Shown piece by piece: positions 1,683-53,375 of a stretch of 58,088 bases of DNA. Position numbers and translations under genes: made by a program. Every line of letters begins with the position of its first letter. The stretch's first letter is position 1. Below the pieces are notes generated by a model. It did not search any database. It was not told the DNA's origin and saw nothing but the letters and a program-made list of their open reading frames with translations. Source of the DNA: Candidatus Desulfatibia profunda (GTDB taxonomy: Bacteria; Desulfobacterota; Desulfobacteria; Desulfobacterales; UBA11574); assembly GCA_014382665.1 (NCBI GenBank), contig JACNJH010000207.1:1-58088 (forward strand). The letters are read 5' to 3'.

Positions 1683-1898
1683 CTATCGTTGATTAACGAT
1701 CCGCCTGATTTGGCGGACCGACATGCCCCAGCGCAGGGCCAGTTCATTGTGGTTGTGGCCTGTGAACTGGTTGCGGATGCGACGATTTCGTTCTTCGAGC
1801 TCCAGTTCTTTGATGGTCGGAATGGTGATGCGTATGCCGCCCAGCTCCTCGAACAGCCCTCGCTGAATGGCAAGTCCTGAAGCCGCTCCAAAAGGGTG
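1683..1898 (-). pseudogene. Mor/C-family transcription activator reading frame without a clear start
   Basis: frame reads ...LFEELGGIRITIPTIKELELEERNRRIRNQFTGHNHNELALRWGMSVRQIRRIVNQR*; in frame directly after the GIY-YIG TGA. Confidence 0.65.
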
Positions 1899-2147: not shown

Positions 2148-2165
2148 GCCATTGACTCTCCGTTG

Positions 2166-2710: not shown

Positions 2711-2712
2711 AC

Positions 2713-3068: not shown

Positions 3069-3190
3069 ATATTGTGAAAGAACATTTTACCCAAGCCGAG
3101 CGTTTTAAATTATAGACTTGAAAATCGCTCAATTTGGGTTTTATTTAATATTGATATTAATCCACTTGCAAAGAGATGTCAATGTTTACC

Positions 3191-3652
3191 TTATTTATAT
3201 TCTTTTTTGGACCTTTCCAAGTCCCGTTCCTGATCGCGCCTTCTGATGGATTCACGCTTGTCATACTTGCGTTTACCTTTGGCAAGGGCCAGGGTCAGTT
3301 TGACCTTTCCACTTTGAAAATAAACCTTTAGGGGGATCAGGGAGTACCCCTTTTCATTGACCTTGGCGTAGAGCTTGTTGATTTCATATTTATGCAAGAG
3401 CAGCTTTTTTCTTCTTAAGGAATCATGATTATCATAAGACGCAAAGGGATAGGGACCGATGTGCATCTGGTAAACAAACACCTCTCCGTGTTTTATCCTG
3501 GCATAGGCATCCTTAAGGTTGACGCGGCCGAGCCGTAAGGATTTGACTTCGGTTCCCAGCAGAACCATCCCCGCCTCGTAAACATCCTCGATAGAATAGT
3601 TATGCCGGGCTTTTCTGTTTTCAGCGACGATCTTTATATGGCTTGAATTCAA
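3191..3652 (-). CDS. smpB: SsrA-binding protein
   Basis: NRKARHNY, GTEVKSLR, RKKLLLHK, GKRKYDKRE. Confidence 0.97.
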   Translation of the reverse strand: MNSSHIKIVAENRKARHNYSIEDVYEAGMVLLGTEVKSLRLGRVNLKDAYARIKHGEVFVYQMHIGPYPFASYDNHDSLRRKKLLLHKYEINKLYAKVNEKGYSLIPLKVYFQSGKVKLTLALAKGKRKYDKRESIRRRDQERDLERSKKEYK

Positions 3653-3696
3653 AAGGTATTATCCCCTAATTGACGACATTAATCAGTTGACCAATT

Positions 3697-5466: not shown

Positions 5467-5475
5467 AATATCGGT

Positions 5476-5757
5476 TTACTCCTCGAAACCTTTTTCAACG
5501 AGTTTCACAAGATCGTTCAATTTTTCAAGATCCGCGCGATCGTTAATTTTTATTGTTATCTTCGAACCCTGCACACAGACCAGCGTGAGGATGTCGATAA
5601 TGCGCGAGGCATCGGCTTTGGTATCGTCCTTTATAATCCAGATATTTGATTTGGCGTTTTGGACACATTTTGCAATTTTTGCTGCCGCCCTGGCATGCAA
5701 ACCAAGCGTGTTAACGATGACAACCTCCCTGGTGAGTTCCTTATCCAAGCCGTCCAT
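5476..5757 (-). CDS. ptsH: phosphocarrier HPr
   Basis: NTLGLHARAA (His15 motif); directly upstream of ptsI. Confidence 0.9.
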   Translation of the reverse strand: MDGLDKELTREVVIVNTLGLHARAAAKIAKCVQNAKSNIWIIKDDTKADASRIIDILTLVCVQGSKITIKINDRADLEKLNDLVKLVEKGFEE

Positions 5758-6170
5758 AGCATACGTTTTATTTTGATATTCCGCCCGGATACCATGTCAC
5801 GGTAATTCCAGAAGCCTGATACGTTGTGTTTTTTAGCACATTTTCTGGGCAGTCTTCATGAAATATTCGGGATAAAATACAACCCTAATTGAGCGTAAAC
5901 CAATCGGATCTTTCGGCATCCTCGACTTTCGCTCAACCAAGGTGCAACCATGAAGTTTCCGGATGGGAACCGATGACAAAAAACGAAAAATTTTTGACGG
6001 AAAATATAAATTTTTTATCAACCTCCTTTGTATTTGTCAATCTGTAATCATTGACAAAAGATAGAATAGCTGTTAAAAATTTTATTTTTGAATATTACAT
6101 ACAACATCTTGAAATTGCAACAAATTATTTTTGTGTGTTTCAAACGATCGCCAGAGCAGGGAGAAAAAAC

Positions 6171-6398
6171 ATGAAGGAAAAAATAGTGATTTACGGCAAG
6201 GATACCTGACCCTATACAACTGAGGCTCGTGAAGCTTTTGCCCAAAAAGGCCGGAAAGTGGAATATTATGATGTGCGCCTTGATGCCGGCAGGATGGACG
6301 CTATGCTGAAATATTCCGACGGCGTGCGTAAGGTTCCGGTCATTGTTGACCAGGGCAAGGTCACCATTGGATTTAACGGCAAAACATGAGGGGTTTAG
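6171..6398 (+). CDS. glutaredoxin-like UXX-star selenoprotein with two Sec (not in ORF track)
   Basis: MKEKIVIYGKDT-TGA(6207)-PYTT...VPVIVDQGKVTIGFNGKT-TGA(6387)-GV-TAG; GGGAG RBS; Trx-fold UxxT and C-terminal UGV*. Confidence 0.8.
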
Positions 6399-6403
6399 GT
6401 AGA

Positions 6404-6420
6404 TTCGGCTGGAGGCCGAA
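6404..6420 (+). promoter_or_regulatory. candidate bacterial SECIS hairpin for the second UGA
   Basis: TTCGGC-TGGAG-GCCGAA, 14 nt after TGA 6387-6389, with a G-rich loop. Confidence 0.5.
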
Positions 6421-6502
6421 CTGTTACCATCCATAAAAGGCTCTTTTTCCGATTTATGAATTGGAAACAATACTATTTGATTACCAAAGAAAAGGGAAGA
6501 CT

Positions 6503-7162
6503 GTGAACAGATTGGAAAAACAATTTTTGATTGACGAATTCAAAATCGGAGAAGCCTGGCGGCTGTTCAAAATCATGGGAGAATTTGTTGAAGGGATCGA
6601 TACACTCCATGAAATAGGTCCTGCCGTGACTTTCTTCGGTTCTGCCAGAATAAAACCCCGTGATCCGATATATAAAAAAACCGAAGAAATCGCAGCGCTT
6701 TTTGCCAAAAACGACTTCGCCGTCATCACCGGCGGGGGTGGGGGTGTTATGGAGGCTGCCAACAAAGGGGCTGCCGAGGCGGGGGGGACTTCCGTTGGGC
6801 TGAATATTCTGCTGCCGTTTGAGCAAAAACCGAACCAATATGCCAATATTAAACTCGATTTCAAATACTTTTTTATCCGCAAGGTCATGTTTATTAAATA
6901 TGCCACCGCCTACATTATCATGCCCGGTGGCTTCGGTACCCTGGATGAGCTTTTTGAGGCCGTAACGCTGATTCAAACCCAACGAATCAGACCGTTTCCG
7001 CTGATTTTGGTCGGTTCCGACTACTGGAGAGGGCTGATCGACTGGATTAAATCTTATTTGCTTGCAGAAAAACGGATATCACCGAAAGATCTCGATATCC
7101 TGCAGGTCATGGATGATACTGAAGAAATATTCAAGGCGGTGCAAAAAGTGGTGATTCTTTAA
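6503..7162 (+). CDS. LOG family (Rossmann-fold) nucleotide phosphoribohydrolase
   Basis: TGGGGGVMEAANKGA, FFIRKVMF, PGGFGTLDE; likely GTG start at 6503 (track starts 6461). Confidence 0.9.
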   Translation: MNRLEKQFLIDEFKIGEAWRLFKIMGEFVEGIDTLHEIGPAVTFFGSARIKPRDPIYKKTEEIAALFAKNDFAVITGGGGGVMEAANKGAAEAGGTSVGLNILLPFEQKPNQYANIKLDFKYFFIRKVMFIKYATAYIIMPGGFGTLDELFEAVTLIQTQRIRPFPLILVGSDYWRGLIDWIKSYLLAEKRISPKDLDILQVMDDTEEIFKAVQKVVIL

Positions 7163-7163
7163 A

Positions 7164-7236
7164 TTTGAATTCCCCGCTGCTTGTCGAAGCGGAGCGTAGA
7201 TCCCGCCAGATCGGGGCAGCGCGGGATGAATTCAAA
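7164..7236. repeat. REP-like palindromic element
   Basis: TTTGAATTC-CCCGCTGC ... GCAGCGCGGG-ATGAATTCAAA; a related CCGCAGC-CTAT-GCTGCGG lies at 7294-7311. Confidence 0.55.
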
Positions 7237-7529
7237 TAAAAGATAGTAACCTCTTTAAGGCGAAAGTGCGGTTAGCCTTTCGCCAAACTGATCCCGCAGC
7301 CTATGCTGCGGAAGTTTCATAAAATCGTAACACGATTTTATTTCTCTTGATTAATAGGAAATATTTTACAATAATACGTTACGATAAGTGAATGATATTC
7401 AGAAAATTATTAAGATACAGAGTCAAGTTTGGCCGGCTGGTAATTATTAAGATCTTCGGATCTCTTTTTTTTGTGAACTCGTTGGCCGCCGGAAGTCTGG
7501 TGCGTTCGTGAAAAGGAAGGCAGAGGATA

Positions 7530-8351
7530 TTGGGAGTATCTGGTGAAACTAAAACGCGAGACGTTCTCCTGGAGTTCGAAGACATTCACATGAGCTTTGG
7601 GAAGGTTCTTGCGCTGGCCGGCGTGAACCTGAAAATCAGAAAAGGGGAGATTCATTCCGTGATCGGGCCCAACGGTGCCGGCAAGACGGTAATGATGAAC
7701 TGTGTCAACGGTCTTTACAGGCCGCAGCAGGGAAGTATTTATTATAAAAAGCAAAAGATTAATAAACTCAAACCTTACCAGCGGGCTATGCTGGGAATTG
7801 CCCGAACGTTTCAAAAAGTTGAAGTTTTTGGCGGTATGACCGTGCTCGACAACATCCGCCTGGGTCGTCATATCCATTATAAATTCGGCGTTATCAGCGG
7901 ATCATGGTATGCCGGCAAAACCGCCCGGGAAGAAATTAAGCATCGCAGCTTTATCGAAGAAGAAATTATAGATCTTCTGGAGATCGAACATATTCGCCAC
8001 AAACCGGTCGGGATGTTGCCGTACGGCTTGCAAAAACGCGTCGAACTGGGCCGGGCCCTGGCCCTGGAGCCTGAACTTCTGATCCTTGATGAACCCCTGG
8101 CGGGCCTCAATCTCGAAGAGGTCGAAGACATGGCCAGATTCATACTAGACATCAATGAAGAAGAGCGCTGGAAGATTACCTGCCTTCTTGTCGAGCACGA
8201 TATGGGCGTGGTGATGGACCTTTCCGATCGTGTTTTTGTGCTCAATTTCGGCAACATGATCATAGACGGCACGCCCGATGAGGTTCAGAATCATCCCGAG
8301 GTGATCAAAGCCTATCTGGGGGAAGAGGATCTGTATGCCACACGCAGATAA
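7530..8351 (+). CDS. branched-chain-type ABC transporter ATPase (LivG-like)
   Basis: GPNGAGKT, LPYGLQKR, LILDEP, LVEHD; start uncertain. Confidence 0.92.
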   Translation: MGVSGETKTRDVLLEFEDIHMSFGKVLALAGVNLKIRKGEIHSVIGPNGAGKTVMMNCVNGLYRPQQGSIYYKKQKINKLKPYQRAMLGIARTFQKVEVFGGMTVLDNIRLGRHIHYKFGVISGSWYAGKTAREEIKHRSFIEEEIIDLLEIEHIRHKPVGMLPYGLQKRVELGRALALEPELLILDEPLAGLNLEEVEDMARFILDINEEERWKITCLLVEHDMGVVMDLSDRVFVLNFGNMIIDGTPDEVQNHPEVIKAYLGEEDLYATRR

Positions 8352-8378
8352 AACAGGACAAGGCCCAAGCGGATAGAT

Positions 8379-10286
8379 ATGGACATCAGCAAAGATCTGA
8401 CAATTCCCAAGCTGTTTTATGAAAAGGCCAAGAAATACGGCAAGCATAGAATTGCCATGCGGGAAAAAGAGCATGGTATCTGGCGTCCGATCTCATGGCA
8501 TGATTATTTTGAAAATGTCAAATACCTCACCTTGGGACTTATCCGTCTGGGCCTTAATCGCCAAGATAAAGTCGCCATGATCGGTGTTAACCGCCCGGAA
8601 GGCCTGTGGGCCGAGATGGCCACCATCTGTGCCGGAGGCATTGGCGTCTGGCTGTTCCAGGACTCCTTGATTGAGGAAGTCAAGTATATTATTGAGCATT
8701 CCGATACCAAATTTTTGTTCGGCGAGGGCCAGGAAGAAGTCGACAAAGCCATTTCAATTTTCGATGAATGCCCCAAGCTGAAAAAGATAATATGGGACAA
8801 CCCCAAAGGGATGCGAAATTATGATCAGGACATTCTCATCAGCCTTAAAGAAGTGCAACAAATGGGCCGGGAACTTGAAAAGGAAAAGCCGGATCTGTTT
8901 GAAGAGATAATCAATACGGGGCACGGGGATGACGTGGCACTTCTTTTTTATACTTCAGGAACGACCGCGCTGCCCAAAGGTGCGCTGCTGTCGCATTATA
9001 ACATGTTGACCATGGGCAGCAATCTCATGGCCGTCGATCCCTGTTACGAGACCGATGATTACGTGTCGTATCTTCCATTTGCCTGGATCGGCGAGCAGAT
9101 GATGTCGATTTCCTGCGGCCTGCAGATCGGATACACCATCAATTTTCCCGAAGATCCTGAAACCGCCCAGGAGAACATCCGTGAGATCGGCCCGCATGTG
9201 ATGTTCGCGCCGCCGCGCATGTATGAGCAAATGACCCGCACGGTCCAGGTCAGATACCTGGATGCTTCCTGGATAAAGCGCAAGTGTTACGAGATTGCCA
9301 ACAAAATCGGTTATCACGTGGCCGACCTTAAATTTCAAAAAAAAACGGTCCCCTGGTTCTGGATGCTCCTGGAACGGCTGGTCTACATCGGTGTCCAGAA
9401 AAAACTAAAGGATCACTTGGGGCTTTCGCGTGTGCGCAATGCCTATACAGGCGGGGCCGCCATGGGGCCCGATCACTTTCGTTTCTTTCATTCCCTGGGT
9501 GTCAATCTAAAGCAGATTTACGGGCAGACGGAAATCGCCGGGATTTCGGTGGTCCACCGCAAAGGAGACATCAAATTTGACACGGTTGGCATTCCGATTC
9601 CGGGAACCGAGATAAAAATCACCGCTGACGGCGAAATTCTCAGCAAGAGCCCATCGGTTTTTTTGGGGTATTATAATAATCCGGAGGCAACCGCCCAGAC
9701 CCTCAAAGACGGCTGGCTCCATTCCGGCGACAGCGGATTTATCGACGACGACGGTCACCTGGTTGTTTTTGACCGCTCTAAAGACGTCATGACCTTAAGC
9801 GACGGCCGGACCTTTGCGCCTCAGTATCTGGAAACCCGCTTGAAGTTCAGTCCGTATCTGAGGGATTCTTGGGTTATCGGCGACAAGCGCCCTTACGTAA
9901 CGGCGGTCGTTTGTATCGATTATTCGGTAGTCGGCAGGTGGGCCGACGAGAAAAAACTTACGTATACCAGCTATTCGGAGCTGTCGCAGAAACCCGAAGT
10001 CTATGACCTTGTGGAAGAACAGATCCGGCGGGCCAACAAAGATCTTCCCGAAGTCGCCAGGATCAAAAGGTTTATCAACCTGTACAAAGAATTCGATGCC
10101 GATGATGATGAACTCACGCGCACTCGGAAACTGCGACGGTCGTTTGTGGAAAAACGCTATGAGGACATTATGGATGCCCTTAACTCAGACCAGGATCATG
10201 TGCACATTGACACCACCATTACCTATGAGGACGGGCGCGTATGCCATATTAAGACGGATTTGCATATTCGAACCGTAACGGATTGA
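8379..10286 (+). CDS. long-chain acyl-CoA synthetase (AMP-binding)
   Basis: YTSGTTALPKG, YGQTE, GWLHSGD. Confidence 0.9.
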   Translation: MDISKDLTIPKLFYEKAKKYGKHRIAMREKEHGIWRPISWHDYFENVKYLTLGLIRLGLNRQDKVAMIGVNRPEGLWAEMATICAGGIGVWLFQDSLIEEVKYIIEHSDTKFLFGEGQEEVDKAISIFDECPKLKKIIWDNPKGMRNYDQDILISLKEVQQMGRELEKEKPDLFEEIINTGHGDDVALLFYTSGTTALPKGALLSHYNMLTMGSNLMAVDPCYETDDYVSYLPFAWIGEQMMSISCGLQIGYTINFPEDPETAQENIREIGPHVMFAPPRMYEQMTRTVQVRYLDASWIKRKCYEIANKIGYHVADLKFQKKTVPWFWMLLERLVYIGVQKKLKDHLGLSRVRNAYTGGAAMGPDHFRFFHSLGVNLKQIYGQTEIAGISVVHRKGDIKFDTVGIPIPGTEIKITADGEILSKSPSVFLGYYNNPEATAQTLKDGWLHSGDSGFIDDDGHLVVFDRSKDVMTLSDGRTFAPQYLETRLKFSPYLRDSWVIGDKRPYVTAVVCIDYSVVGRWADEKKLTYTSYSELSQKPEVYDLVEEQIRRANKDLPEVARIKRFINLYKEFDADDDELTRTRKLRRSFVEKRYEDIMDALNSDQDHVHIDTTITYEDGRVCHIKTDLHIRTVTD

Positions 10287-42628: not shown

Positions 42629-44128
42629 TTACAGCTCTTCGATTTTTGCGGTGTCACTTTTTTCCGGAGTTGGGCGCTTCTTTTTGTGCCGGGATCTTTT
42701 TTTCTTCTTTTTGGGGCCACCTGGAATCGTATGTGTATCGGATTCGGCCGCGGCGTTCAACTCCGGGCCAAAACCGAATAAACTTCCGGGAAAGGAACCC
42801 GCTTCGGTTTTTGGGGAACTCTTCGGGCTCATGGAGCATTTTTCTTCGCGTTTGGGTTCCCGTTTCCGAAAAGGTTTTCTCCCTCTGCCTTTTCTCGCGA
42901 ATGGGACCAGCTTTGACTTATCTTTGGCAACCCATTCGTCTTCGGGCCAAATTACCGGAATTTTGAAGCCCAGCATTTCCTCGAGCGGTTCGAGATGAAA
43001 GACATATTTCTCACAGGCCAATGAAAGTGCTCGCCCGGTCTTTCCCGCTCTGGCGGTCCGTCCGATCCGGTGGATATAGTTTTCGACATCCTGCGGGAGG
43101 TCATAGTTGATAACGTGGCTGATGTCCTCAACATGGATACCTCGCGAAGCCACGTCCGTAGCCACCAGTATTTTGATTCGGCCGTTTTTGAACAACTCCA
43201 TGAGCCTGAAACGTTTGCGCTGGGGCAGGTCACCGGTGATGCCCTCGGCCGGCCAGCCGTTGTCCTTGAGTTTGCGGGCAAGCCATATTACGCCGGCCTT
43301 GGTATTGACAAAGATCAGAATCCGGTTCCAGTCTTCCCTTTCCAGCAGTCCCAGAAGCAGAGGCAACTTATTTTCGGAGTCGATGTGAAACAGGAACTGC
43401 TCAATTCCCTCAACCGTAATTTCCTCGGGAGTAACGGATATAAATTCGGGCAGGTTCATGTATTCATAGGTCAGTTCCAGGACGCGGTAGGAAAGTGTTG
43501 CTGAAAAAAGCATGGATTGTCTTTTCTCATAATGGGGAAGCTTGCGCAAAATATAGCGCATATCCTTTGAGAAACCAAGGTCCAGAAGACGGTCGGCCTC
43601 ATCGATGACTACGATGTTGATGCCTGATGCTTTGAAAATGCCCTGTTTGAAGTAATCGATAATCCGGCCGGGTGTGCAGATGACGATGTCCGTACCCTGC
43701 CGAAGGATTTCGGCCTGCTTGCGGTAATCAACGCCGCCTAAGACATTTGCCAGGGTCAGGCCGGTATGGCGGCCGATGCTTGCGGCTTCCTCGTAAATCT
43801 GGAGGGCCAGTTCCCGCGTGGGGGCCACAATGAGGGCCGACGGCAGCCCGGCGTTTTGATGGGGTAATGCCAAAAGCCTGGTAAAAACGGTCACCAGAAA
43901 AGCGGCCGTCTTTCCTGTGCCGGTCTGGGCCTGGCCCGCAATATCACGGCCCGTGAGGGAAACCGGCAGTACCTGGGCCTGAATCGGGGTGCAGTATGTA
44001 AAACCGGTATCCCTTAATCCGTTCAGGATTTCTACCGGAAGGTTGAACTCATCGAATTTCGTCCGGGTCAAAAAGTTTGGTTTATCCCGGCGTTGAGTAA
44101 GTTCTGGTGATTCTGTTTCATTCATCAT
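42629..44128 (-). CDS. DEAD-box RNA helicase (RhlB-like)
   Basis: AQTGTGKT, PTRELA, DEAD, SAT, HRIGRTAR; basic C-tail; likely start 44128. Confidence 0.92.
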   Translation of the reverse strand: MMNETESPELTQRRDKPNFLTRTKFDEFNLPVEILNGLRDTGFTYCTPIQAQVLPVSLTGRDIAGQAQTGTGKTAAFLVTVFTRLLALPHQNAGLPSALIVAPTRELALQIYEEAASIGRHTGLTLANVLGGVDYRKQAEILRQGTDIVICTPGRIIDYFKQGIFKASGINIVVIDEADRLLDLGFSKDMRYILRKLPHYEKRQSMLFSATLSYRVLELTYEYMNLPEFISVTPEEITVEGIEQFLFHIDSENKLPLLLGLLEREDWNRILIFVNTKAGVIWLARKLKDNGWPAEGITGDLPQRKRFRLMELFKNGRIKILVATDVASRGIHVEDISHVINYDLPQDVENYIHRIGRTARAGKTGRALSLACEKYVFHLEPLEEMLGFKIPVIWPEDEWVAKDKSKLVPFARKGRGRKPFRKREPKREEKCSMSPKSSPKTEAGSFPGSLFGFGPELNAAAESDTHTIPGGPKKKKKRSRHKKKRPTPEKSDTAKIEEL

Positions 44129-44569
44129 GATAAAGTAATTATACGCGTTTACATTTATTTTGCAAGCAGCTATATCGACATTGTGATTTGCCCCGGCCGG
44201 CTGCTCGAACTCGGCTGCTCTAAAAAGCCGACATGGGCTGGATGAAAGCAATGGCATCCTGCTGACAGAGGCACCCCAAATATTTATTCACACCCGATTG
44301 GCTGTTTCCAAAAAGGCTGAACTCCGTGTCTGTTCCATTTTCAACTTGAGAAATATCAGTTCCTATTTATAAAAATGAGAATTCAGAATACTTATTTTTA
44401 TATTTGCTATTTTTTCAAGTAGTTGCTTTCAATTATAGACCCTGATAAACCATAACCCGCTAATTGTCGCAAAAAATCGGATCTGTCAGTTCCGATTATA
44501 ATACGGACGGACGAGCATTTATGTGCGCAACCATCTAAAATAACTGAAAAATATATCATCACCATGTTT

Positions 44570-44585
44570 TGGCATAGCTTTTGCT
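44570..44585 (+). promoter_or_regulatory. sigma54 promoter upstream of the KamA cluster
   Basis: TGGCATAGCTTTTGCT: GG-N10-GC with consensus flanks. Confidence 0.75.
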
Positions 44586-44696
44586 GTTTCGCTCACTATA
44601 AAGGTTGAAAACAGCCTTTAATTTTAAAAATCTCAAATCTTAAAGTGGGCAGATGATATTTTTAATTTAACGCCTTTTTTAAAAGAGGAGAAAAAG

Positions 44697-45983
44697 ATGC
44701 GATCCGCAAAAAATGTTAGCACCCCATCAGCCCGATTGATACCGGAGAATGAAGAAGAACCTCCGGGTAGTATAAGTCCCGCCGCAAGGACCTCGCCTGC
44801 CAAAGTCTTGTTTTTTGAACCCTCGATCATATCGCGTGCCAAGTCATTTAAAAAACAGAATAGCATAACATCGGCTTTTCGCCGAAAATTTTTTCCAATG
44901 GTTTCAGATAAACAGTGGAATGACTGGCACTGGCAGGTCATAAACAGAATTTGCAGGCCGGATCAACTAGGGCGGTTTCTCAACCTTTCGCAGGCAGAAC
45001 AAAATGCATTCAAGCACTCAAGAAAATTGCCGTTGAGCATTACGCCTTATTACATGAGCCTATTGAATTCTAACGATCCCGATCAGCCCCTTCGCCGGTC
45101 GGTCGTTCCCACCGAGCACGAATTTTCTAAAATGCCGGAAGAAGAAGATGATCCCCTGGGTGAAGAAAGCCAGAGCCCTTTGCCGGGGCTGGTACACCGT
45201 TATCCGGACCGCGTTCTCCTGCTGGTGCTCGACTTTTGTACAACTTATTGCCGTTATTGTACGCGCTCTCGTTTGGTGGGCAAAGGTGCGATTCTTCCCA
45301 GTCAGAGCCGTCTGGAGCGGGCCATTGAATATATTCGCAACACACCCTCGATCCGCGACGTGCTTCTTTCGGGAGGGGACCCGCTGACGTTGAGCGACCG
45401 GAAATTAGACTGGCTTTTGGCGCGCCTTCGAGAAATTCCACATGTGGAAATCATTCGCATCGGCACCAAAATTCCGGCCGTGCTGCCCCAGCGCATCACC
45501 CCTCAGCTTGTTCGGGTTTTCAAGAAATATCACCCCTTGTGGATGAGCCTCCACTTTACCCATCCCGAGGAGTGTACCCCGGAAGCTTACCGGGCCTGCG
45601 GCATGCTGGCGGACGGAGGTATTCCTTTAGGGTCGCAAACCGTGCTTCTCAATGGTATTAATAATAATGTGGATACAATGAAAGCCCTCGTACATCATCT
45701 CATGAAGATGCGCGTCCGGCCTTATTATTTGTATCAGTGTGACCCGATTTCAGGATCGCGTCATTTTCGAACCAGCGTCGAAAACGGTTTGGAAATCATT
45801 CGAGGACTGCGAGGGCATACCAGCGGTTACGCGGTTCCCAATTATGTCATTGATGCGCCTAAAGGCGGCGGCAAGATACCGGTGATGCCGGATTATGTCG
45901 TCGGCTATCAGGGCAATGAGCTTATTTTAAGAAATTATGAAAACAAAGAGTTTCGATATACGGATTCGGCATGTCGTGTCTAG
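44697..45983 (+). CDS. KamA-family radical SAM aminomutase
   Basis: LVHRYPDR, CTTYCRYC, LSGGDPL, YYLYQCD, GGGKIP. Confidence 0.92.
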   Translation: MRSAKNVSTPSARLIPENEEEPPGSISPAARTSPAKVLFFEPSIISRAKSFKKQNSITSAFRRKFFPMVSDKQWNDWHWQVINRICRPDQLGRFLNLSQAEQNAFKHSRKLPLSITPYYMSLLNSNDPDQPLRRSVVPTEHEFSKMPEEEDDPLGEESQSPLPGLVHRYPDRVLLLVLDFCTTYCRYCTRSRLVGKGAILPSQSRLERAIEYIRNTPSIRDVLLSGGDPLTLSDRKLDWLLARLREIPHVEIIRIGTKIPAVLPQRITPQLVRVFKKYHPLWMSLHFTHPEECTPEAYRACGMLADGGIPLGSQTVLLNGINNNVDTMKALVHHLMKMRVRPYYLYQCDPISGSRHFRTSVENGLEIIRGLRGHTSGYAVPNYVIDAPKGGGKIPVMPDYVVGYQGNELILRNYENKEFRYTDSACRV

Positions 45984-46016
45984 CGATTCAGCATGCCGTG
46001 AGGTGCGAAAACCATT

Positions 46017-46502
46017 ATGGGTACCACAAAAAATTTATGCGCGGACTGCTCCAGCCATCAAAAAACGTGCTGTCAGGAAAGGGACATCTATCTTACACCC
46101 GGAGATTTAAAACGAATACAAGAATATGTCAGAAATGAAAATTTCTATGAATTTCGCATTCCTTCAGATCCATCATACCTGGCAGTCACTGATGATCCGA
46201 TGTGGAAAGAACATGTCTTCAGGTTAGACAATACTCGTCGCGTATTAAAACAGGACCCGGTCGGAAACTGTATCTTTCTATCTCCAAACGGCTGCATCAT
46301 GTCGATAAATGAGCGGCCCCTTGTGTGTCGCCTCCATCCTTATGAGTACAATGCGGATGGATTATGTGAAAGGCTGGTTCCGGAGTGCCCGGTGTATTTG
46401 CTCGAATCGGGAATAACCCTTCAGGATGCGATAGGGTTAAATCCTGACCAGGCATTGCAGTGGCACTATCTGCTGTATTCAGAAATTCTTATGGAGCACT
46501 AA
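46017..46502 (+). CDS. YkgJ-like Cys-cluster (Zn/Fe-chelating) protein
   Basis: CADC...CC, CIFL...GC, RPLVCRLHP. Confidence 0.8.
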   Translation: MGTTKNLCADCSSHQKTCCQERDIYLTPGDLKRIQEYVRNENFYEFRIPSDPSYLAVTDDPMWKEHVFRLDNTRRVLKQDPVGNCIFLSPNGCIMSINERPLVCRLHPYEYNADGLCERLVPECPVYLLESGITLQDAIGLNPDQALQWHYLLYSEILMEH

Positions 46503-46506
46503 AACC

Positions 46507-47493
46507 ATGCGAATCGGGCTCACATATGATTTGCGGTCTGAATATCTTGCATTGGGATATAGCGAGGAAGAAACCGCCGAATTTGATCGTGACGACACCA
46601 TCTTTGCGATTGAGAACGCGTTAGAAACACTGGGCCACATACCCGTACGGATCGGAAATGTACGCAAGCTGATCGAATATCTATCCCGCGGCGAACGTTG
46701 GGATCTTGTGTTTAACATTGCCGAGGGGTTGAACGGCGTTTCCCGTGAAGCACAGATTCCTGCCATTTTAGATGTTTATGGAATTCCCTATACGTTTTCC
46801 GACCCGCTGGTGATGGCGCTGACGCTTCACAAGGGAATGACCAAACACATTATTCGAGACCATGGTTATCGAACCTCGGTTTTTTGTGTTATTGAGCACC
46901 CTGAGGAAGTGTCGGACATTTCTTTTGCCCCCCCTTTTTTCGTTAAGCCGGTAAGAGAAGGGACCGGCAAAGGGATTTCACCGGCATCTATTATCCAGGA
47001 GCCTGAAATGCTGCCAAGGGCCTGTGAAACCCTTATTGTTGCATATAAGCAGCCGGTTCTGGTGGAGCAATTTTTACCGGGCCGGGAATTTACCGTCGGC
47101 ATCCTCGGAACAGGCAGAGATGCTAAAGCGTTGGGGACGCTTGAGATTGTGCTGCTGGAGGGCGCCGAGACGAATGTTTATTCCTATGTGAACAAGGAAT
47201 ATTGCGAGGAGCTTGTGGAATACCCTCTGGTTTTGCCGGATAACGACAAACAGGTTCGGGAAGCGGAAGAGCTTGCGCTGGCATGCTGGCAGGCTCTTGG
47301 ATGTCGCGATGGCGGAAGGGTGGACCTGCGCTGCGACGCAAACGGAGATCCTTGCTTTCTCGAAGTAAATCCTCTGGCCGGGCTGCATCCCGAACATTCC
47401 GATTTGCCGATTCTCTGCAACCGCCTTGGTATACCCTACCTGGAGTTGATTGACCGGATTCTTTCGTCTGCCGCCACCCGGATACAGATGTGA
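46507..47493 (+). CDS. D-Ala-D-Ala-ligase-like ATP-grasp enzyme
   Basis: FVKPVREGTGKG, EQFLPGREFTV, RVDLR, EVNPLAG. Confidence 0.88.
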   Translation: MRIGLTYDLRSEYLALGYSEEETAEFDRDDTIFAIENALETLGHIPVRIGNVRKLIEYLSRGERWDLVFNIAEGLNGVSREAQIPAILDVYGIPYTFSDPLVMALTLHKGMTKHIIRDHGYRTSVFCVIEHPEEVSDISFAPPFFVKPVREGTGKGISPASIIQEPEMLPRACETLIVAYKQPVLVEQFLPGREFTVGILGTGRDAKALGTLEIVLLEGAETNVYSYVNKEYCEELVEYPLVLPDNDKQVREAEELALACWQALGCRDGGRVDLRCDANGDPCFLEVNPLAGLHPEHSDLPILCNRLGIPYLELIDRILSSAATRIQM

Positions 47494-47510
47494 AAAGGCG
47501 GGGCAACAGG

Positions 47511-47654
47511 AGAGACCTTTGCAAAACGCCCCCTTTTGCCCAATTTCTGCGTCAGACTCAGATTTTAATCCTCGAAATACTCTATGTATTCCTGTGGCTA
47601 AAATCTTCGTCTTCCTTGAACTTGAACAAAATTGAACATTTTTCAAAGGTCTCT
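47511..47654. mobile_element. 144-bp MITE inside the KamA operon
   Basis: TIRs AGAGACCTTTGCAAAA / TTTTCAAAGGTCTCT; AGG on both flanks; internal hairpin. Confidence 0.7.
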
Positions 47655-47666
47655 AGGAGCTAAGCG

Positions 47667-49241
47667 GTGCGTGTCGCTATTCTTCTCAATGCAGTCACAG
47701 ATAAAAGCACTCCGGACGAACAAGATGTCATTGTTCAGGCTGAGTCTGTTTCGGCCGCGCTGCTCCAGCTCGGCCATACACCTGAACTTCTGTCCTGTGA
47801 CCTGGATCTGGCATCCTTGCGGCAAAGGCTTGAAAACATACAACCGGATGTTGTTTTTAATCTGGTGGAATCTTTGGAAGGCAAGGGAAAATTAATTCAT
47901 CTGGTGCCGTCGTTGCTGGATGTCATGGGAATCCCCTACACCGGCTCTGCGAGCGAATCCATCTACTTATCTTCTCATAAGGTGATGGCCAAAGAAAAGA
48001 TGTTGTCATCCAATCTGCCGACCCCTGACTGGATCGGACCCTACCCTTCAGAGCATACATCACACTGCGGCTTAAAAAGCACCTCCAAAAGAAGCAAAGA
48101 AACCATCTGGATCATTAAATCCGTATGGGAACATGCATCCATCGGCCTGGATGACAATGCCCTGATAACCGTTGAAAACGATAATGCCCTGACCGATCAT
48201 ATCAAAGAGCGATATTTTCATTTTGGCGGTGCCTGCTTTGCCGAACAGTATATTGAAGGACGGGAGTTTAACCTTTCGCTGCTGGCGGGCCCGGACGGTC
48301 CCGAGGTCTTGCCGCCGGCGGAAATTCTGTTTGAAGGGTACCCGGAGAATAAGCCCAGAATTGTAGGGTACAGTGCCAAATGGGATGATCGATCGTTTGA
48401 CTATCATCATACCCCCCGGCGTTTCGATTTTCCTCACGGCGACGGACCACTTTTGGCAAAACTTGAGGACATGGCACTTCGCTGCTGGCGGCTGTTCGGG
48501 CTTGGAGGATATGCGCGCGTCGATTTTCGCGTTGATAACGATAAAAACCCCTGGATTTTGGAGGTGAACACCAATCCGTGCCTTTCTCCGGATGCGGGTT
48601 TTGCGGCTGCGCTCAACCGGTTGGGAATGAGTATCATCCATGCCGTCAGGCGGATTCTGGACGATGCTTTCAGAAATAGAACCAAGGATTCGGCCGGGGC
48701 GGTCAGGCCGCAATCGTTCGATTCCGTTATCCTGACTTCTGAAAAAGAATCCACGACATCCGGCGTCTTTTTCCGTTATGCCGTCACCCCCGAGGATACC
48801 CAAAATGTCCGCCAACTGACGTCGGCAACCGGTTTTTTCAGCGAACCGGAAGTCGAAGTTGCCGTTGAACTCGTTGAGGAGCGGTTGGCAAAAGGCACGG
48901 CAAGCGGTTATTACTTTGTTTTTGTAGATCGAGAAAATCGGTTGGCCGGCTATGCTTGCTACGGACCGATTCCGTGCACAGTGTCCGGCTATGATCTTTA
49001 TTGGATTGCCGTGCATCCGGAGTTTCAAAAAAAAGGACTGGGCAGAACGATATTCAACGAAACCGAAAGATTGATTCGTGAAGCCGGCGGAACGCGGATA
49101 TATGCCGATACATCCCAAAAGCCACAATATGACGACACGCGTGCATTTTACGATCGTTGTGGATTTGATATTGCGGCCGTGCTCGAAGATTTTTTTGATC
49201 GCGGCGACGGCAAGGTGATTTACGCCAAAAGCATAGCCTAA
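47667..49241 (+). CDS. ATP-grasp ligase fused to a GNAT acetyltransferase
   Basis: IKSVWEHASIG, EQYIEGREF, EVNTNP, then YWIAVHPEFQKKGLG and FYDRCGF. Confidence 0.88.
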   Translation: MRVAILLNAVTDKSTPDEQDVIVQAESVSAALLQLGHTPELLSCDLDLASLRQRLENIQPDVVFNLVESLEGKGKLIHLVPSLLDVMGIPYTGSASESIYLSSHKVMAKEKMLSSNLPTPDWIGPYPSEHTSHCGLKSTSKRSKETIWIIKSVWEHASIGLDDNALITVENDNALTDHIKERYFHFGGACFAEQYIEGREFNLSLLAGPDGPEVLPPAEILFEGYPENKPRIVGYSAKWDDRSFDYHHTPRRFDFPHGDGPLLAKLEDMALRCWRLFGLGGYARVDFRVDNDKNPWILEVNTNPCLSPDAGFAAALNRLGMSIIHAVRRILDDAFRNRTKDSAGAVRPQSFDSVILTSEKESTTSGVFFRYAVTPEDTQNVRQLTSATGFFSEPEVEVAVELVEERLAKGTASGYYFVFVDRENRLAGYACYGPIPCTVSGYDLYWIAVHPEFQKKGLGRTIFNETERLIREAGGTRIYADTSQKPQYDDTRAFYDRCGFDIAAVLEDFFDRGDGKVIYAKSIA

Positions 49242-49334: not shown

Positions 49335-49658
49335 TTTAAGGAACTGGAACTGATGAAGCCGTCCGCATATCTGATTAACACCTCACGGGGACCGGTAATC
49401 GATGAAAGGGCGCTTTTAAAGGCCCTTGAGAACCGGGTGATATCCGGAGCCGGTCTGGATGTATATGAACATGAACCTGAATTGACTCCCGGTCTTTCAG
49501 CGCTTGACAATGTGATTCTTCTTCCCCATATAGGCAGCGCTACCGTCGAAACCCGCACAAAAATGGCGATGATGGCCGCCCAAAATCTTTTGGCTGGACT
49601 GAAAGGGGAAACACCGCCCAACTGTTTGAACTGTGCCGACCTTTGTGATAACAAATAA
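49335..49658 (+). pseudogene. 5'-truncated D-2-hydroxyacid dehydrogenase (glyoxylate/glycerate reductase-like)
   Basis: only the C-terminal part is present: KELELMKPSAYLINTSRG, GLDVYE, LPHIGSA; no GxGxxG region upstream. Confidence 0.8.
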
Positions 49659-49695
49659 AATCGCTGAGCGATTTTATAAAACGTCCCGCTTAAAG

Positions 49696-49739: not shown

Positions 49740-49984
49740 TGGTCCTCTGGGCCAGGTCAGAGTTAACTGGCTTTGCCAAAGACCTTTAAAAGTGCCTTAA
49801 GTTTGAAGTGAGCTAAAGTGCGCTAAAGTTAAGGAATTCTATCAATTATATAAAAAATAATGGAGCGAAGCGACTCCGTAACTTTAGGCACTTTAGCTCA
49901 CTTAAGGCACTTCGAACTTGTCCAATTTTCAGAAAAGCAGCCCCCCTTTCAGGGGCAAACCAAAGCCTGGTCCTCTGGGCCAGG
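49740..49984. repeat. long nonamer-repeat palindrome bracketed by 17-bp direct repeats
   Basis: IR arms spanning 49790-49912 (AAGTGCCTTAAGT...GCTAAAGTTA); TGGTCCTCTGGGCCAGG at 49740 and 49968. Confidence 0.7.
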
Positions 49985-50039
49985 ATTCTTTACTATAGCG
50001 GCGAAGCCGCGTTTTAAAAAATCATGGAATGATTTTTTT

Positions 50040-51269
50040 ATGAAAGAATTTTTTAAGGTTACAGACTTAGAAAAGGTTCTTGCATATGCATCCGACTTCC
50101 CCAGGGTTGATATCGAAGAGGTTCCGCTGGACAAGGCTGCCGGCCGGATTCTGGCGGAAGATATCGTTTCGGACTTTGATCTTCCGGATTTTGAGCGATC
50201 TACCATGGACGGTTACGCTGTAAAGGCTGCATCTACTTTTGGTTCGACAGAAGGGAATCCTGCTTATCTTGCCATAAAAGGCGTTGTTGAGATGGGGGAA
50301 TCGCCCGCATTTTCAATCGCACCCGGTGAAGCTGCTAAAATATCCACCGGCGGTATGCTGCCGGATGGGGCCGACAGTGTTGTCGTGATTGAACATACCG
50401 AGGCGGTTGACGACGTCACGATAGAAGCATACAAAAGCGTTGCTCCGGGACAGAACGTGCTGGCAAAGGGCGAAGATGTCCAAAAGGGTGATATTATGCT
50501 CACCTGCGGCCGGAAACTCAGATCCCAGGAAACCGGCCTTCTGGCGGCCTTCGGCAGAGAAACGATTCGTGTCTTTCGCCGGCCGGTTATCGCCATTATC
50601 TCCACCGGCGATGAAGTGGTCCCGATAAATGAAATCCCCGGACCCGGCCAAATCCGCGATATCAATTCCTATACGCTGGCGACCCTGGTGCAGGGTGCCG
50701 GCGGTGTTCCGATAATGCTCGGGATTGTCGGCGACAACATTGACGAGCTTTTCGAAAGATGCACAACGGCACTGGCCCAATCCGACATGGTCCTGATTTC
50801 AGGGGGAAGCAGTGTGGGCACCCGCGATTTTACCATCGAGGTGCTTGCGGCCCTGTCCGATGCTAAAATCCTGGTTCACGGCATTTCCATCAGTCCCGGC
50901 AAGCCCACCATTCTGGCCAGGTCGGGCAACCAGGCAATTTGGGGCTTGCCCGGCCATGTGGTATCCGCCATGGTCGTTTTTGAAATCGTTATCCGGCCGT
51001 TTATTGAACGTATCGCCGGCCTTTCAGCGGAACATAAAAACGTTTTCAAACTTTCCGCCCTGCTCAGCAGAAACCTTTCGTCGGCACAAGGGCGTATCGA
51101 TTATGTCCGGGTGCGGCTCGTTGAAAAAGAAGGGGTTCTATGGGCGGAACCGATCCTGGGGAAATCGGGCCTTATCCATACCATGGTAAAGGCCGACGGT
51201 CTGATCGAGATCGGTATCAACTCGGAAGGTTTGGACAAGGGCACTGAAGTTGAAGTCATTCTTATTTAG
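50040..51269 (+). CDS. moeA: molybdopterin molybdenumtransferase
   Basis: STMDGYAV, ISTGG, STGDE, SGGSSVG, PGKP, GLPG; likely start 50040. Confidence 0.92.
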   Translation: MKEFFKVTDLEKVLAYASDFPRVDIEEVPLDKAAGRILAEDIVSDFDLPDFERSTMDGYAVKAASTFGSTEGNPAYLAIKGVVEMGESPAFSIAPGEAAKISTGGMLPDGADSVVVIEHTEAVDDVTIEAYKSVAPGQNVLAKGEDVQKGDIMLTCGRKLRSQETGLLAAFGRETIRVFRRPVIAIISTGDEVVPINEIPGPGQIRDINSYTLATLVQGAGGVPIMLGIVGDNIDELFERCTTALAQSDMVLISGGSSVGTRDFTIEVLAALSDAKILVHGISISPGKPTILARSGNQAIWGLPGHVVSAMVVFEIVIRPFIERIAGLSAEHKNVFKLSALLSRNLSSAQGRIDYVRVRLVEKEGVLWAEPILGKSGLIHTMVKADGLIEIGINSEGLDKGTEVEVILI

Positions 51270-51370
51270 ACAGGATTAACAAGATGGACTTGATTATTTG
51301 TTTTTAACAGTTTCATCAGGAAACTGTTAAAAATTAAAAGGAAATCCTCAAATATCCTGTCGATCCTGTC
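51269..51370. repeat. intergenic nested palindrome
   Basis: GACAGGAT ... ATCCTGTC(x2) enclosing TTTTTAACAGTTTC / GAAACTGTTAAAAA. Confidence 0.55.
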
Positions 51371-51446
51371 AAAAATGCATTTTATAATCTTTGTGAACTT
51401 CGTGTTCTTCTTGGTTTAAACCAGTTCACAGACAAATCGGGGAAAA

Positions 51447-53375
51447 ATGAGTCATAAGCGCAACATATATCTACAGATGAAGACCCTGAAAGAGGCTCGT
51501 GCCATCCTCTTTGACGCGTTTCCGGCATCCGGAGTTCTTTTAAGCGAAACAGTTCCGGTGCCGGACGCTGTCGGCCGGGTACTGGCCGAAGCGGTCGCGG
51601 CCGAGATTTCTTCACCCAATTTCCATTCGTCGGCCATGGACGGCATTGCCGTGAAAGCCCGAACGACATTTGGAGCCTCTGAAACCAAACCCAGGGAACT
51701 TGTGGTGGGCCGGGATGCCTTTTTTATCAATACCGGTCATGTAATGCCGAAAAACACCGATGCGGTGATTATGATCGAGCACGTCAATGTTCTGGAGGAA
51801 CGCCGTGTTCAAATCGAGGCCCCGGTGTTTCCGTGGCAGAACGTCAGGAAGATGGGCGAAGACATTGTGGCCACGGAGCTTTTGTTTCCCAGGAACCATG
51901 TTATTACACCGTATTGCCTCGGCGCCCTGCTTTCCGGAGGTATTTTTAAGGTTGTTGTGCGCAAAAAGCCGAAAGTGCTCATCATTCCAACCGGCAGTGA
52001 GCTGGTGGACTGGCGCGTAACAGCCCTTGAAGATCTTCAACCCGGGCAGGTGCTCGAAACCAATTCTTTTCTGCTGGGGAAACTGGTCGAATCCTATGGC
52101 GGGGAGTTTGTTCGCCATGAAATCCTAAAAGATGATCATGATCAGATCAAACAGGCGATCGACAGGGCCATAAGGGGCGATATAAACGTGGTTCTGGCCG
52201 TGGGCGGGTCATCGGCAGGGTCCGAGGATTATGCCAGGGGCGTCATCGAAGATCTGGGCAGGGTGCTCGTTCACGGTGTAACCATTATGCCCGGAAAACC
52301 GGTTATCATCGGCGCTGTCGGCGGCACGCCGGTATTTGGCATCCCGGGATACCCGGTATCGGCCATCATTGCCTTTGAGCAGTTTGTCGGCCCGCTGATC
52401 TTAAGGATGCTGGGACAACCCGAAAGGGAGCGCCCCGGTGTTCAAGTTGAACCGACCCGCAAAATCGCATCCAAACTCGGGGTTGAAGAATTCGTGCGGG
52501 TAAAGCTCGGGACTGTCGGCAACAAGGTTGTGGCCACTCCCCTGCCCAGAGGGGCGGGATGCATCACCACCATCACCGAGGCCGACGGTATTATCCGGAT
52601 ACCCAATCACGTGGAAGGGCTTAACATTCATGAACCGGTTACGGCGGAACTGCTGCGCCCCCTGTCAACCGTGAACAACACGATTGTGGTTGTCGGCAGC
52701 CACGACAACACCCTGGATGTTCTGGCCGACCAGATCCGGGCCGGCCATAGCAACCTTGTCCTTTCTTCGAGCCATGTCGGCAGCATGGGCGGGCTGATGG
52801 CCATTAAAAAAGGGGTGTGCCATCTGGCCGGATCCCATCTTTTAGATACCGAAGACGGCACGTACAACATTTCCTATATCAAAAAGCATCTTCCCGATGT
52901 CAGGGTAAGATTGGTGAACCTGGTCTTTCGGGATCAGGGTTTGATCGTAGCGCGCGGGAATCCTAAGGGCATCCAGGGAATCGAAGACCTGGCGCGCGAG
53001 GATATCACGTTTATCAACCGTCAGGCCGGCTCCGGCACCAGGGTTTTGCTCGATTACAACTTGCAGCAGCTTGGTATCGATTCCGCCGGGATCAGCGGGT
53101 ATGAAACCGAAGAGTTTACCCACATGTCCGTTGCCGTGGCGGTGCTCGGCGGAACCGCCGATGCAGGCTTAGGGATCTATGCGGCTGCAAAGGCTTTAAA
53201 GTTGGATTTTATTCCGGTGGTTACCGAACAGTACGATCTGGTCATTCCCCAAATATATTTCGAGTCGCCGAACATTAAAGTGTTGCTTGAGACCATTAAC
53301 ACCCAGGCCTTTAAAACACGGGTCGAAGCCCTGGGCGGATACAGCACCGCAATAACAGGTGAAATGATCATATAA
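51447..53375 (+). CDS. moeA: MoeA fused to a periplasmic-binding-protein-like (PBP) domain
   Basis: SAMDGIAV, PGKP, PGYPVS, then GSHD, GSMGGL, NRQAGSGTR. Confidence 0.9.
   Translation: MSHKRNIYLQMKTLKEARAILFDAFPASGVLLSETVPVPDAVGRVLAEAVAAEISSPNFHSSAMDGIAVKARTTFGASETKPRELVVGRDAFFINTGHVMPKNTDAVIMIEHVNVLEERRVQIEAPVFPWQNVRKMGEDIVATELLFPRNHVITPYCLGALLSGGIFKVVVRKKPKVLIIPTGSELVDWRVTALEDLQPGQVLETNSFLLGKLVESYGGEFVRHEILKDDHDQIKQAIDRAIRGDINVVLAVGGSSAGSEDYARGVIEDLGRVLVHGVTIMPGKPVIIGAVGGTPVFGIPGYPVSAIIAFEQFVGPLILRMLGQPERERPGVQVEPTRKIASKLGVEEFVRVKLGTVGNKVVATPLPRGAGCITTITEADGIIRIPNHVEGLNIHEPVTAELLRPLSTVNNTIVVVGSHDNTLDVLADQIRAGHSNLVLSSSHVGSMGGLMAIKKGVCHLAGSHLLDTEDGTYNISYIKKHLPDVRVRLVNLVFRDQGLIVARGNPKGIQGIEDLAREDITFINRQAGSGTRVLLDYNLQQLGIDSAGISGYETEEFTHMSVAVAVLGGTADAGLGIYAAAKALKLDFIPVVTEQYDLVIPQIYFESPNIKVLLETINTQAFKTRVEALGGYSTAITGEMII

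Follow-up and report, generated by a model that had tools for sequence, protein, structure and literature searches.

A sigma-54-associated cassette linking a lysine 2,3-aminomutase-type enzyme to two Ddl-like ATP-grasp ligases in Candidatus Desulfatibia profunda

Analysis of a 58,088-nucleotide stretch of the Candidatus Desulfatibia profunda genome (assembly GCA_014382665.1, contig JACNJH010000207.1; hereafter the window) identified four plus-strand genes 3' of a sigma-54 element. They encode, in order, the aminomutase KamA, a YkgJ-type protein, a Ddl-like ATP-grasp ligase (ligase 1) and a second such ligase fused to a GNAT acetyltransferase domain (ligase 2::GNAT). The same genes recur together, often fused, in several phyla. 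Sequence comparisons supported KamA as an enzyme of the lysine 2,3-aminomutase (LAM) type, and both ligases are predicted to be active enzymes outside the D-Ala-D-Ala ligase class. The product may be a small cytoplasmic N-acetylated beta-lysine amide or peptide, made by a stress- or signal-inducible pathway; we hold this reading tentatively, at a little short of an even chance. No description of the gene set or its product was found in the literature searched, in agreement with a first-pass annotation of this DNA, which knew of no characterised product. The features are as follows.

44340-44408, plus strand: AT-rich element of 69 bp at the upstream edge of the conserved block, 5' of the candidate upstream activating sequence (UAS)
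44476-44496, plus strand: palindrome ATCGGAtctgtcagtTCCGAT (ATCGGA-N9-TCCGAT), candidate UAS for an NtrC-type activator, 93 bp upstream of the promoter
44570-44585, plus strand: sigma-54 -24/-12 element TGGCATagcttTTGCT (= TGGCATAGCTTTTGCT), a full match to TGGCAT-N5-TTGCT
44697-45983, plus strand: kamA, 428 aa, with Radical_SAM and LAM_C domains (Pfam and NCBIfam matches) and an N-terminal extension of ~60 aa
44757-44768, plus strand: E21-P22-P23-G24 motif, preceded by acidic residues, in the KamA N-terminal extension
46017-46502, plus strand: YkgJ/CxxCxxCC protein (Pfam match PF03692), 161 aa, with 8 invariant cysteines
46507-47493, plus strand: ligase 1, Ddl-like ATP-grasp, 328 aa, with a Dala_Dala_lig_C match
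47494-47666, plus strand: intergenic gap of 173 bp before the fusion gene
47667-49241, plus strand: ligase 2::GNAT fusion gene, 524 aa, with a GTG start and AGGAG 8 nt before it
47667-48701, plus strand: ligase 2 ATP-grasp domain, with family matches and retained catalytic residues
48759-49241, plus strand: GNAT domain of the fusion, with an Acetyltransf_1 match

Linkage and distribution of the cassette

A sample of 401 genomes from across the phylum contained relatives of the ligase 2/GNAT pair, fused or adjacent, in 99 cases. Where flanking sequence was available (40 loci), kamA was nearby in 34 and a ligase-1 gene in 37. A ligase-1 profile scan returned relatives in at least 596 species-representative genomes, and a phmmer search of the full database gave 735 relatives below 1e-30. 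The best 80 of the at least 596, all of them metagenome-assembled genomes, were labelled as Desulfobacterota, Planctomycetota, Acidobacteriota, Bacteroidota, Spirochaetota, Nitrospirae and others; carriers of ligase 1 were mostly anaerobic sediment and groundwater bacteria. Adjacent to ligase 1 in these best 80 loci were ligase 2 (74), kamA (71), a GNAT gene (57), a histone deacetylase (HDAC)-type deacetylase gene (22) and ykgJ (10). Fusion proteins included KamA::ligase1 (P0134), YkgJ::ligase1 (P0129), many ligase1::ligase2 proteins in both orders, and GNAT-HDAC-GNAT in relatives. The window itself contributes ligase2::GNAT, and the Pfam domains found at 47667-49241 agree with the earlier description of the last gene as an ATP-grasp and acetyltransferase fusion. 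At least one fusion thus ties each cassette component to the next. In genomes of family f22, the cassette was seen without an adjacent kamA (L078-L080 and L082), with the ligase-1 signature AEESESD kept. Three f22 genomes, G012 (which carries L080), G054 and G091, encode a high-scoring KamA (~610 bits); at locus L178 of G054 it lies, by eye, between aminotransferase-like and acyl-CoA-synthetase-like genes.

A YkgJ-family gene was found between kamA and ligase 1 in 10 of the 80 loci, always in the order kamA-ykgJ-ligase1 and including Planctomycetota-labelled loci. By this arrangement, YkgJ is judged a genuine optional member of the cassette. Its AlphaFold2 model (pLDDT 84) had no fold match in the PDB (best E 4.5) and therefore gave no functional clue. 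Across the flanking regions of 128 loci, just two accessory families recurred on the same strand, an activator (21 loci) and a small oligonucleotide/oligosaccharide-binding (OB)-fold protein (17 loci); no recurrent transporter, nonribosomal peptide synthetase (NRPS) or precursor peptide was seen there. In many loci, the gene for the OB-fold protein separates kamA from the sigma-54 promoter. It was modelled with a pLDDT of 90, and its structural matches were only generic (RPA, SSB and the LysRS N-domain, at a TM-score of ~0.6). The family has no Pfam model and shows the motif G-x-V-I-P-x-x-W-D ... V-x-V-T-G. Its genes typically lie directly behind sigma-54 promoters, and several paralogues carry signal peptides. 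In this genome, one copy lies at C105, behind the activator's UAS and promoter, and two lie at C38 (21475-22566); relatives occur at L004:4544-4840 and at L054, L055, L073, L080 and other loci.

The operon had been described as tight. This held for the gaps between kamA and ykgJ (33 bp) and between ykgJ and ligase 1 (4 bp), and not for the 173 bp before the fusion gene. An unusually stable RNA fold (z -0.46) and an internal sigma-54 site were both sought in that gap, and neither was found. Homology to the closest relative, L001, extended from ~44322 to 49234, with unrelated flanks; a 4.9-kb block that includes the promoter thus stands in differing contexts in two related genomes. The element at 44340-44408 was 90% identical to L001, compared with 77-81% for the coding DNA.

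KamA, the ligases and the enzymes of acetylation

KamA was 55% identical to the Clostridium lysine 2,3-aminomutase (PDB 2A5H) over 361 residues. It keeps C125, C129 and C132 of the CxxxCxxC motif, the pyridoxal 5'-phosphate (PLP) lysine K337, R134, D293 and D330 (2A5H numbering). From the LAM work attributed to Lepore and colleagues (2005) and to Ruzicka and Frey (2007), we take D293 and D330 to hold the epsilon-ammonium group of lysine, R134 to bind the carboxylate and K337 to bind PLP. In a first alignment set of cassette KamAs (n = 34), CxxxCxxC and these four residues were conserved in all 34; in a second set (n = 71), D293, D330 and K337 were present in 70 and R134 in 68, the remainder being alignment gaps. 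The motif cysteines were kept by every cassette orthologue that aligned. The protein passed the general aminomutase model TIGR00238 (345 bits, cut-off 199). It fell below the cut-offs for AblA (TIGR03820; 486.8 bits against 525.4, the highest-scoring model), EpmB (TIGR03821; 247.9 against 369.3) and glutamate 2,3-aminomutase (TIGR04368; 438 against 650; both aspartates are kept, rather than Lys/Asn), and it also failed the arginine-aminomutase equivalog cut-off.

In a maximum-likelihood tree, the window KamA fell within a 31-sequence clade, supported at 100/100, that held cassette KamAs only. This clade was separate from the Clostridium enzyme, from the true AblA of locus L175 and from the kamA of L182, which adjoins a 3,5-diaminohexanoate dehydrogenase gene and represents the lysine-fermentation type. 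At L175, AblA is followed by AblB (326 bits) and, read from the sequence, by an MscS-like channel gene; the reference AblA proteins in the tree scored 755-770 bits. The tree was built without EpmB or glutamate-aminomutase sequences, and model scores were the only test for those two families. The assignment as an aminomutase thus stood, with all lysine-type residues kept, and the phylogenetic check proposed earlier set KamA apart from AblA and catabolic kamA by tree and context, and from EpmB by score. Taken together, these results support the window KamA as a LAM-type radical SAM/PLP enzyme, as far as sequence can tell.

One alternative is that the beta-lysine made by KamA goes into the modification of elongation factor P (EF-P), the role of EpmB. 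The genome encodes EpmA and an EF-P with a lysine-type KPGKGQA loop, which would suit such a role. However, the EpmB score is well short of its cut-off, EpmA lies elsewhere (C212, above cut-off), another KamA paralogue is available (C101), and two ligases, the GNAT and a deacetylase would be left unaccounted for. With EpmA at C212 and two further KamA paralogues in the genome, an EF-P role for this KamA is unnecessary, and we regard it as extremely improbable. A KamA-family protein is encoded at C201:1-2589 (minus strand). It matched glutamate 2,3-aminomutase best, has an N-terminal extension of ~150 aa (cut by the contig end), and adjoins a 472-aa ATP-grasp_3 protein, a second aminomutase-plus-ligase pair.

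The N-terminal extensions of cassette KamAs span ~50-90 residues and are unconserved except for an acidic run ending in E-P-P-[S/G], which was present in 29/34 and 60/71 sequences of the two sets (89/105) and across phyla. The residue before the two prolines is nearly always E and not D. The motif was missing from 2A5H, from the paralogue at C101 and from the single KamA::ligase1 fusion examined (P0134); its absence there is what would be expected if the arm serves for docking and is no longer needed once the two proteins are fused. A D before PP is a stronger stall motif than an E, and an EF-P stalling role for the motif was considered and rejected, given that the preceding residue is almost always E.

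The best family and PDB matches of both ligases were Ddl/Van ligases, and a cell-wall role, in which the ligases supply D-Ala-D-Ala or a variant dipeptide of peptidoglycan and kamA stands beside them by chance, would follow from these matches. The remaining evidence is against it. Against the Ddl subfamily model, ligase 1 scored 148 bits and ligase 2 scored 104 bits, with a cut-off of 243. For residue comparisons, 29 ligase-1 and 39 ligase-2 orthologues were aligned in DdlB numbering; the E. coli DdlB reference sequence is consistent with the 1IOV match (rows 61-303/306) and with the match to the genome's own ddl. Nine ATP/Mg residues (K97, K144, E180, E187, K215, R255, D257, E270 and N272) were invariant in 29/29 ligase-1 orthologues and, except for E270 (38 E, 1 D), in 39/39 ligase-2 orthologues. 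The D-Ala1 triad and L282 were replaced: at DdlB positions E15/S150/Y216/S281/L282, ligase 1 has A/T/E/S/D, within a conserved pocket signature A-E-E-T-E-S-D, and ligase 2 has D/A/W/A/G, with W216 and G282 invariant. Ligase 1 has acquired acidic pocket residues (E216 and D282), as would suit a positively charged substrate such as beta-lysine. Elsewhere in the genome (C83:2907-3809) there is a canonical ddl, which shares 42% identity with E. coli DdlB from end to end, and kamA is linked in 71/80 loci, with fusions besides. Both proteins are thus predicted to be ATP-grasp enzymes with intact catalytic residues and not D-Ala-D-Ala ligases, which supports the earlier reading, and a cell-wall role is scarcely credible. 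The first-pass annotation had held that its proposal would fail if the ligases made D-Ala-D-Ala and KamA grouped with EpmB or catabolic KamA, with no new metabolite; the sequence comparisons point neither to such ligases nor to such a grouping. At C98:2283-3323 (plus strand), a third Ddl-like ATP-grasp protein was noted, which is ligase-2-like (28% identical); 3' of it are a gene for a 170-aa protein without a Pfam match and then, by eye, an isocitrate dehydrogenase kinase/phosphatase-like gene.

The GNAT domain matched Pfam Acetyltransf_1 at 51.9 bits (cut-off 20.7) and contains the acetyl-CoA loop QKKGLG (Q/R-x-x-G-x-G/A). Its closest PDB match was 2R7H, an uncharacterised Desulfovibrio GNAT (E 1e-43). 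It gave no match to the AblB model TIGR03827 at E<=0.001, whereas the genuine AblB of L175 scored 326 bits. This bears on the possibility that the operon makes N-epsilon-acetyl-beta-lysine in the manner of AblA/AblB, with the ligases unrelated or regulatory. AblA is the best model for KamA, a GNAT is present, and some cassette KamAs exceed the AblA cut-off; the window KamA, however, lies below it and in a clade apart from true AblA, and no partner is better conserved than the ligases, which also occur in one polypeptide with KamA and with the GNAT. We consider this possibility very unlikely.

A deacetylase partner is encoded away from the window, at C144:3898-5691, and shares 57% identity across 575 residues with the GNAT-HDAC-GNAT protein that the cassette of L004 encodes. 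The C-terminal GNAT of the L004 protein is 51% identical to the window GNAT; this domain is carried on the deacetylase in L004 and on ligase 2 here. The best PDB matches of the deacetylase were acetylpolyamine amidohydrolases (APAHs; 6PHR and 3Q9B, E 7e-77), and its sequence shows the His-His dyad, Asp/His metal ligands and the EGGY tyrosine. Compared with these enzymes, it has an extra N-terminal domain, and its counterparts in other genomes also have a C-terminal GNAT. The N-terminal domain is GNAT-like by a RGGLGSALYERV-type motif; Pfam gave no GNAT match on the protein of this genome. In two loci, L080:5755-8653 and L072:10979-12409, an M20-family dipeptidase/deacylase gene takes the position of the HDAC-type deacetylase gene, directly 3' of the ligases, and at L080 it is followed by what appears from the sequence to be a major facilitator superfamily (MFS)-type transporter. 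The EF-P gene, with its KPGKGQA loop, is at C144:9415-9993, 3.7 kb from the deacetylase gene; this closeness is probably a coincidence.

The sigma-54 promoter and its activator

The sigma-54 element is 112 nt before the kamA ATG and agrees with the consensus TGGCAY-N5-TTGCW and its GG-N10-GC core. It is the sole strict match in the 58-kb window, for which ~0.17 would be expected by chance; at least one strict match was present in 17/100 shuffled windows, and a single pattern match, taken alone, would be weak evidence. The promoter is convincing because its distance to kamA is unchanged in L001, L005 and L002 and because a conserved palindrome lies 93 bp upstream of it. The palindrome, of the class TCGGAAC-N5-GTTCCGA, is conserved in L001, and an exact copy occurs nowhere else in the 3.85-Mb genome. 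An rpoN gene was found at C188. A sigma-54 promoter before the operon, as the first-pass annotation had it, is therefore upheld by the element itself, its conserved spacing, the palindrome and rpoN.

A simple scan within 500 nt of kamA found a sigma-54 site in the closest relatives only; the cassette promoter is often 0.4-1.4 kb upstream, with small genes between. In a survey of 123 cassette loci, with 114 control regions taken from the other side of the cassettes, a sigma-54-like site was present upstream in 30 of the 123, and UAS-like palindromes preceded 21 of those 30. The spacing between palindrome and sigma-54 site in the 21 loci was 40-400 nt, with clusters near 70, 171-183 and 196-203 nt. 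Among the controls, 15 of 114 had a sigma-54-like site and only 1 of those 15 also had a palindrome.

In related genomes, a gene for an NtrC-type activator (REC, AAA+ sigma-54-interaction and HTH_8 domains) often precedes the cassette. For the activators adjoining 7 cassette loci, the best match in this genome was in every case C105:1889-3307, at 48-61% identity. Beside it are two palindromes of the same class, TCGGAAtagttagTTCCGA and cCGGAATccgagaTTCCGA (4689 and 4720), and a sigma-54 element, TGGCATgttcgTTGCT (4905). We infer that C105:1889-3307 is the unlinked orthologue of the cassette activator and predict that it binds 44476-44496. The cassette promoter would thereby be part of a conserved activator/UAS/sigma-54 system, in which binding itself is predicted. 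This architecture is a concrete handle for finding the inducing signal. Within the C105 region (1889-9076), the UAS pair and sigma-54 element are divergent to the activator gene, and an OB-fold open reading frame (4996-5385), a gene for a CBM48 glycogen-binding protein (6024-6359) and, read from the sequence, a glycogen phosphorylase gene (6572-9076) follow.

A sigma-54 site or UAS was sought upstream of the deacetylase gene at C144 and none was found; co-regulation of the deacetylase is therefore not supported. An MFS transporter gene at C217, with a UAS-like cluster upstream, was considered as a regulon member and rejected, as each site has 2 mismatches.

New for this window are the status of YkgJ as an optional member, the activator/UAS/promoter architecture and the finding that activator and deacetylase are unlinked. 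The wide distribution of the cassette, the recurrence of YkgJ, the unlinked deacetylase partner and the conserved activator/UAS had been overlooked in the earlier annotation.

Proposed pathway and competing readings

In the pathway that we favour, the NtrC-type activator would bind the palindrome at 44476-44496 and drive sigma-54 transcription from 44570. KamA would convert L-lysine to beta-lysine, and ligase 1 would form a first ATP-dependent amide bond using beta-lysine, an assignment based on its fusion to KamA and on its acidic pocket. Ligase 2 would form a second amide bond, and the GNAT fused to it would acetylate a remaining free amine. The APAH-type deacetylase (C144:3898-5691) would remove the acetyl group again, and YkgJ, where present, may assist at the KamA/ligase-1 stage, perhaps in a metal-related or redox capacity. 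The substrates beyond lysine, the order of ligation, the acetylated atom and the physiological role are conjectural in this scheme. APAHs act on small N-acetylated amines. Because the flanks of the 128 loci hold no recurrent transporter, NRPS or precursor peptide, an intracellular small molecule is favoured, and its role may be that of a compatible solute or charge buffer. Of the earlier proposal of an N-acetylated beta-amino-acid peptide as a solute or as a cell-wall or protein modification, the peptide part gains from the lysine-type KamA and from ligases outside the D-Ala-D-Ala class, a compatible solute is one option among several, and the cell-wall role has little support.

Several observations weigh against a purely soluble small molecule. 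Two ligases with an acetylase and a deacetylase would be just as much in keeping with an oligomer, with a polyamine conjugate or with an intermediate bound to protein. Neither the conserved E-P-P within an otherwise unconserved KamA extension nor the frequent OB-fold protein in the same transcription unit is explained by a soluble pathway. No osmotic-stress gene was found beside the cassette, unlike the MscS gene by the true ablAB of L175, and the deacetylase gene here has neither a sigma-54 site nor a UAS.

The nearest rival is a polycation, either a short oligo-beta-lysine or a beta-lysyl-polyamine conjugate, whose charge would be switched by the GNAT and deacetylase and which may serve as a polyamine substitute or as a nitrogen or charge reserve. 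A deacetylase of the APAH type and the acidic E216 and D282 of ligase 1 would both suit such cationic substrates. Frequent fusion of the ligases is expected of iterative or paired action, and the OB-fold, co-transcribed in 17/128 loci, commonly binds charged polymers. On the other side, iterative catalysis is unsupported, the deacetylase is present in only 22/80 loci, and no polyamine biosynthesis or transport genes are linked in the flanks of the 128 loci. We consider a polycation rather unlikely.

The E-P-P motif raises the possibility of on-protein chemistry, in which lysine or beta-lysine would be tethered by a ligase to the glutamate of the KamA extension or to the OB-fold protein, either in the manner of the LysW amino-group carrier or as a new kind of protein beta-lysylation; alternatively, the extension may be a mere docking arm. 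The occurrence of the motif in 89/105 cassette KamAs amid unconserved sequence, the near-constant E before PP, its absence from the non-cassette KamAs and from the one fusion examined, and the rank of the OB-fold protein as the commonest accessory gene after the activator are all consistent with this. However, the ligases are Ddl-type and not RimK/LysX-type, the deacetylase is of a small-molecule type, and several OB-fold paralogues with signal peptides would be outside the cytoplasm. Some cassettes also lack the N-terminal extension, the OB-fold protein or an adjacent kamA. Chemistry of this kind is unlikely in our view. In a more specific form, beta-lysine would never be free: the ligases would use the E-P-P glutamate as the point of attachment or at least as a docking arm, KamA would carry its own substrate or product, acetylation and deacetylation would serve protection and release, and the regulon of the sigma-54 activator would include the OB-fold proteins. 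This version is a long shot. A parallel to the attachment form could be drawn with LysW/LysX of lysine biosynthesis, in which an ATP-grasp enzyme joins an amino acid to a glutamate of a protein, to be freed later by a deacylase, but that ATP-grasp belongs to a different family, no LysW-like protein is present here, and the extension belongs to KamA itself.

Returning to the favoured N-acetylated beta-lysine amide or peptide, the pathway would be an ATP-grasp small-molecule ligase pathway that uses a beta-amino acid, a kind that is already known. MysD of mycosporine-like amino acid synthesis, carnosine synthase and BacD/TabS are ATP-grasp enzymes that join a carboxylate to an amine on free small molecules, beta-amino acids among them in the case of carnosine; we know of none with a link to a radical SAM aminomutase or with use of beta-lysine. 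The Ddl/Van ligases share the fold and the ATP/Mg residues, and the cassette ligases differ in their replaced substrate residues and scores below the cut-off. Ngg, a bifunctional GNAT/ATP-grasp enzyme attributed to Sagot and colleagues in 2010, is said to make N-acetylglutaminylglutamine for the osmolyte NAGGN. It resembles the cassette fusion in having an acetyltransferase and an ATP-grasp peptide ligase in one polypeptide and in yielding an N-acetylated peptide without a ribosome or NRPS. The domain order is reversed, however, the cassette ATP-grasp is Ddl-type and the cassette amino acid would be beta-lysine. The Ngg family was not among the NCBIfam matches (the presence of an Ngg model in the library being unconfirmed), and the likeness is architectural only.

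The AblA/AblB system of Pelobacter carbinolicus (PMC3543383) is alike in using a lysine 2,3-aminomutase followed by GNAT acetylation, and AblA is the best model for KamA. The cassette differs in that its GNAT is unrelated to AblB, its KamA forms a clade of its own and the two ATP-grasp ligases are obligatory; within the phylum, the true ablA-ablB-mscS order is found at a locus of its own (L175).

Known fates of beta-lysine are few: an acetylated osmolyte, lysine fermentation, EF-P modification and some antibiotics. The cassette would add another, by way of ribosome- and NRPS-independent ligases. The identity of the product would give a function to thousands of genes labelled 'D-alanine--D-alanine ligase' or 'GNAT family N-acetyltransferase', would correct misleading cell-wall annotations, and could reveal a new solute or polycation in the stress physiology of sulfate reducers.

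On its upstream side, the operon is flanked by a divergent DEAD-box helicase gene (42629-44257, minus strand). Directly 3' of the cassette (49353-49655, plus strand) is a remnant of a D-2-hydroxyacid dehydrogenase gene, comprising the C-terminal third only (2-Hacid_dh_C 117-178/178), followed by a palindromic terminator-like hairpin at 49655-49677. The block edges and this remnant fit a rearrangement in which the cassette lost its linkage to the activator and deacetylase genes. Further downstream, at 49860-53375 (plus strand), are two MoeA-type genes in a row, the second of which is fused to a PBP-like periplasmic-binding-type domain (PF12727).

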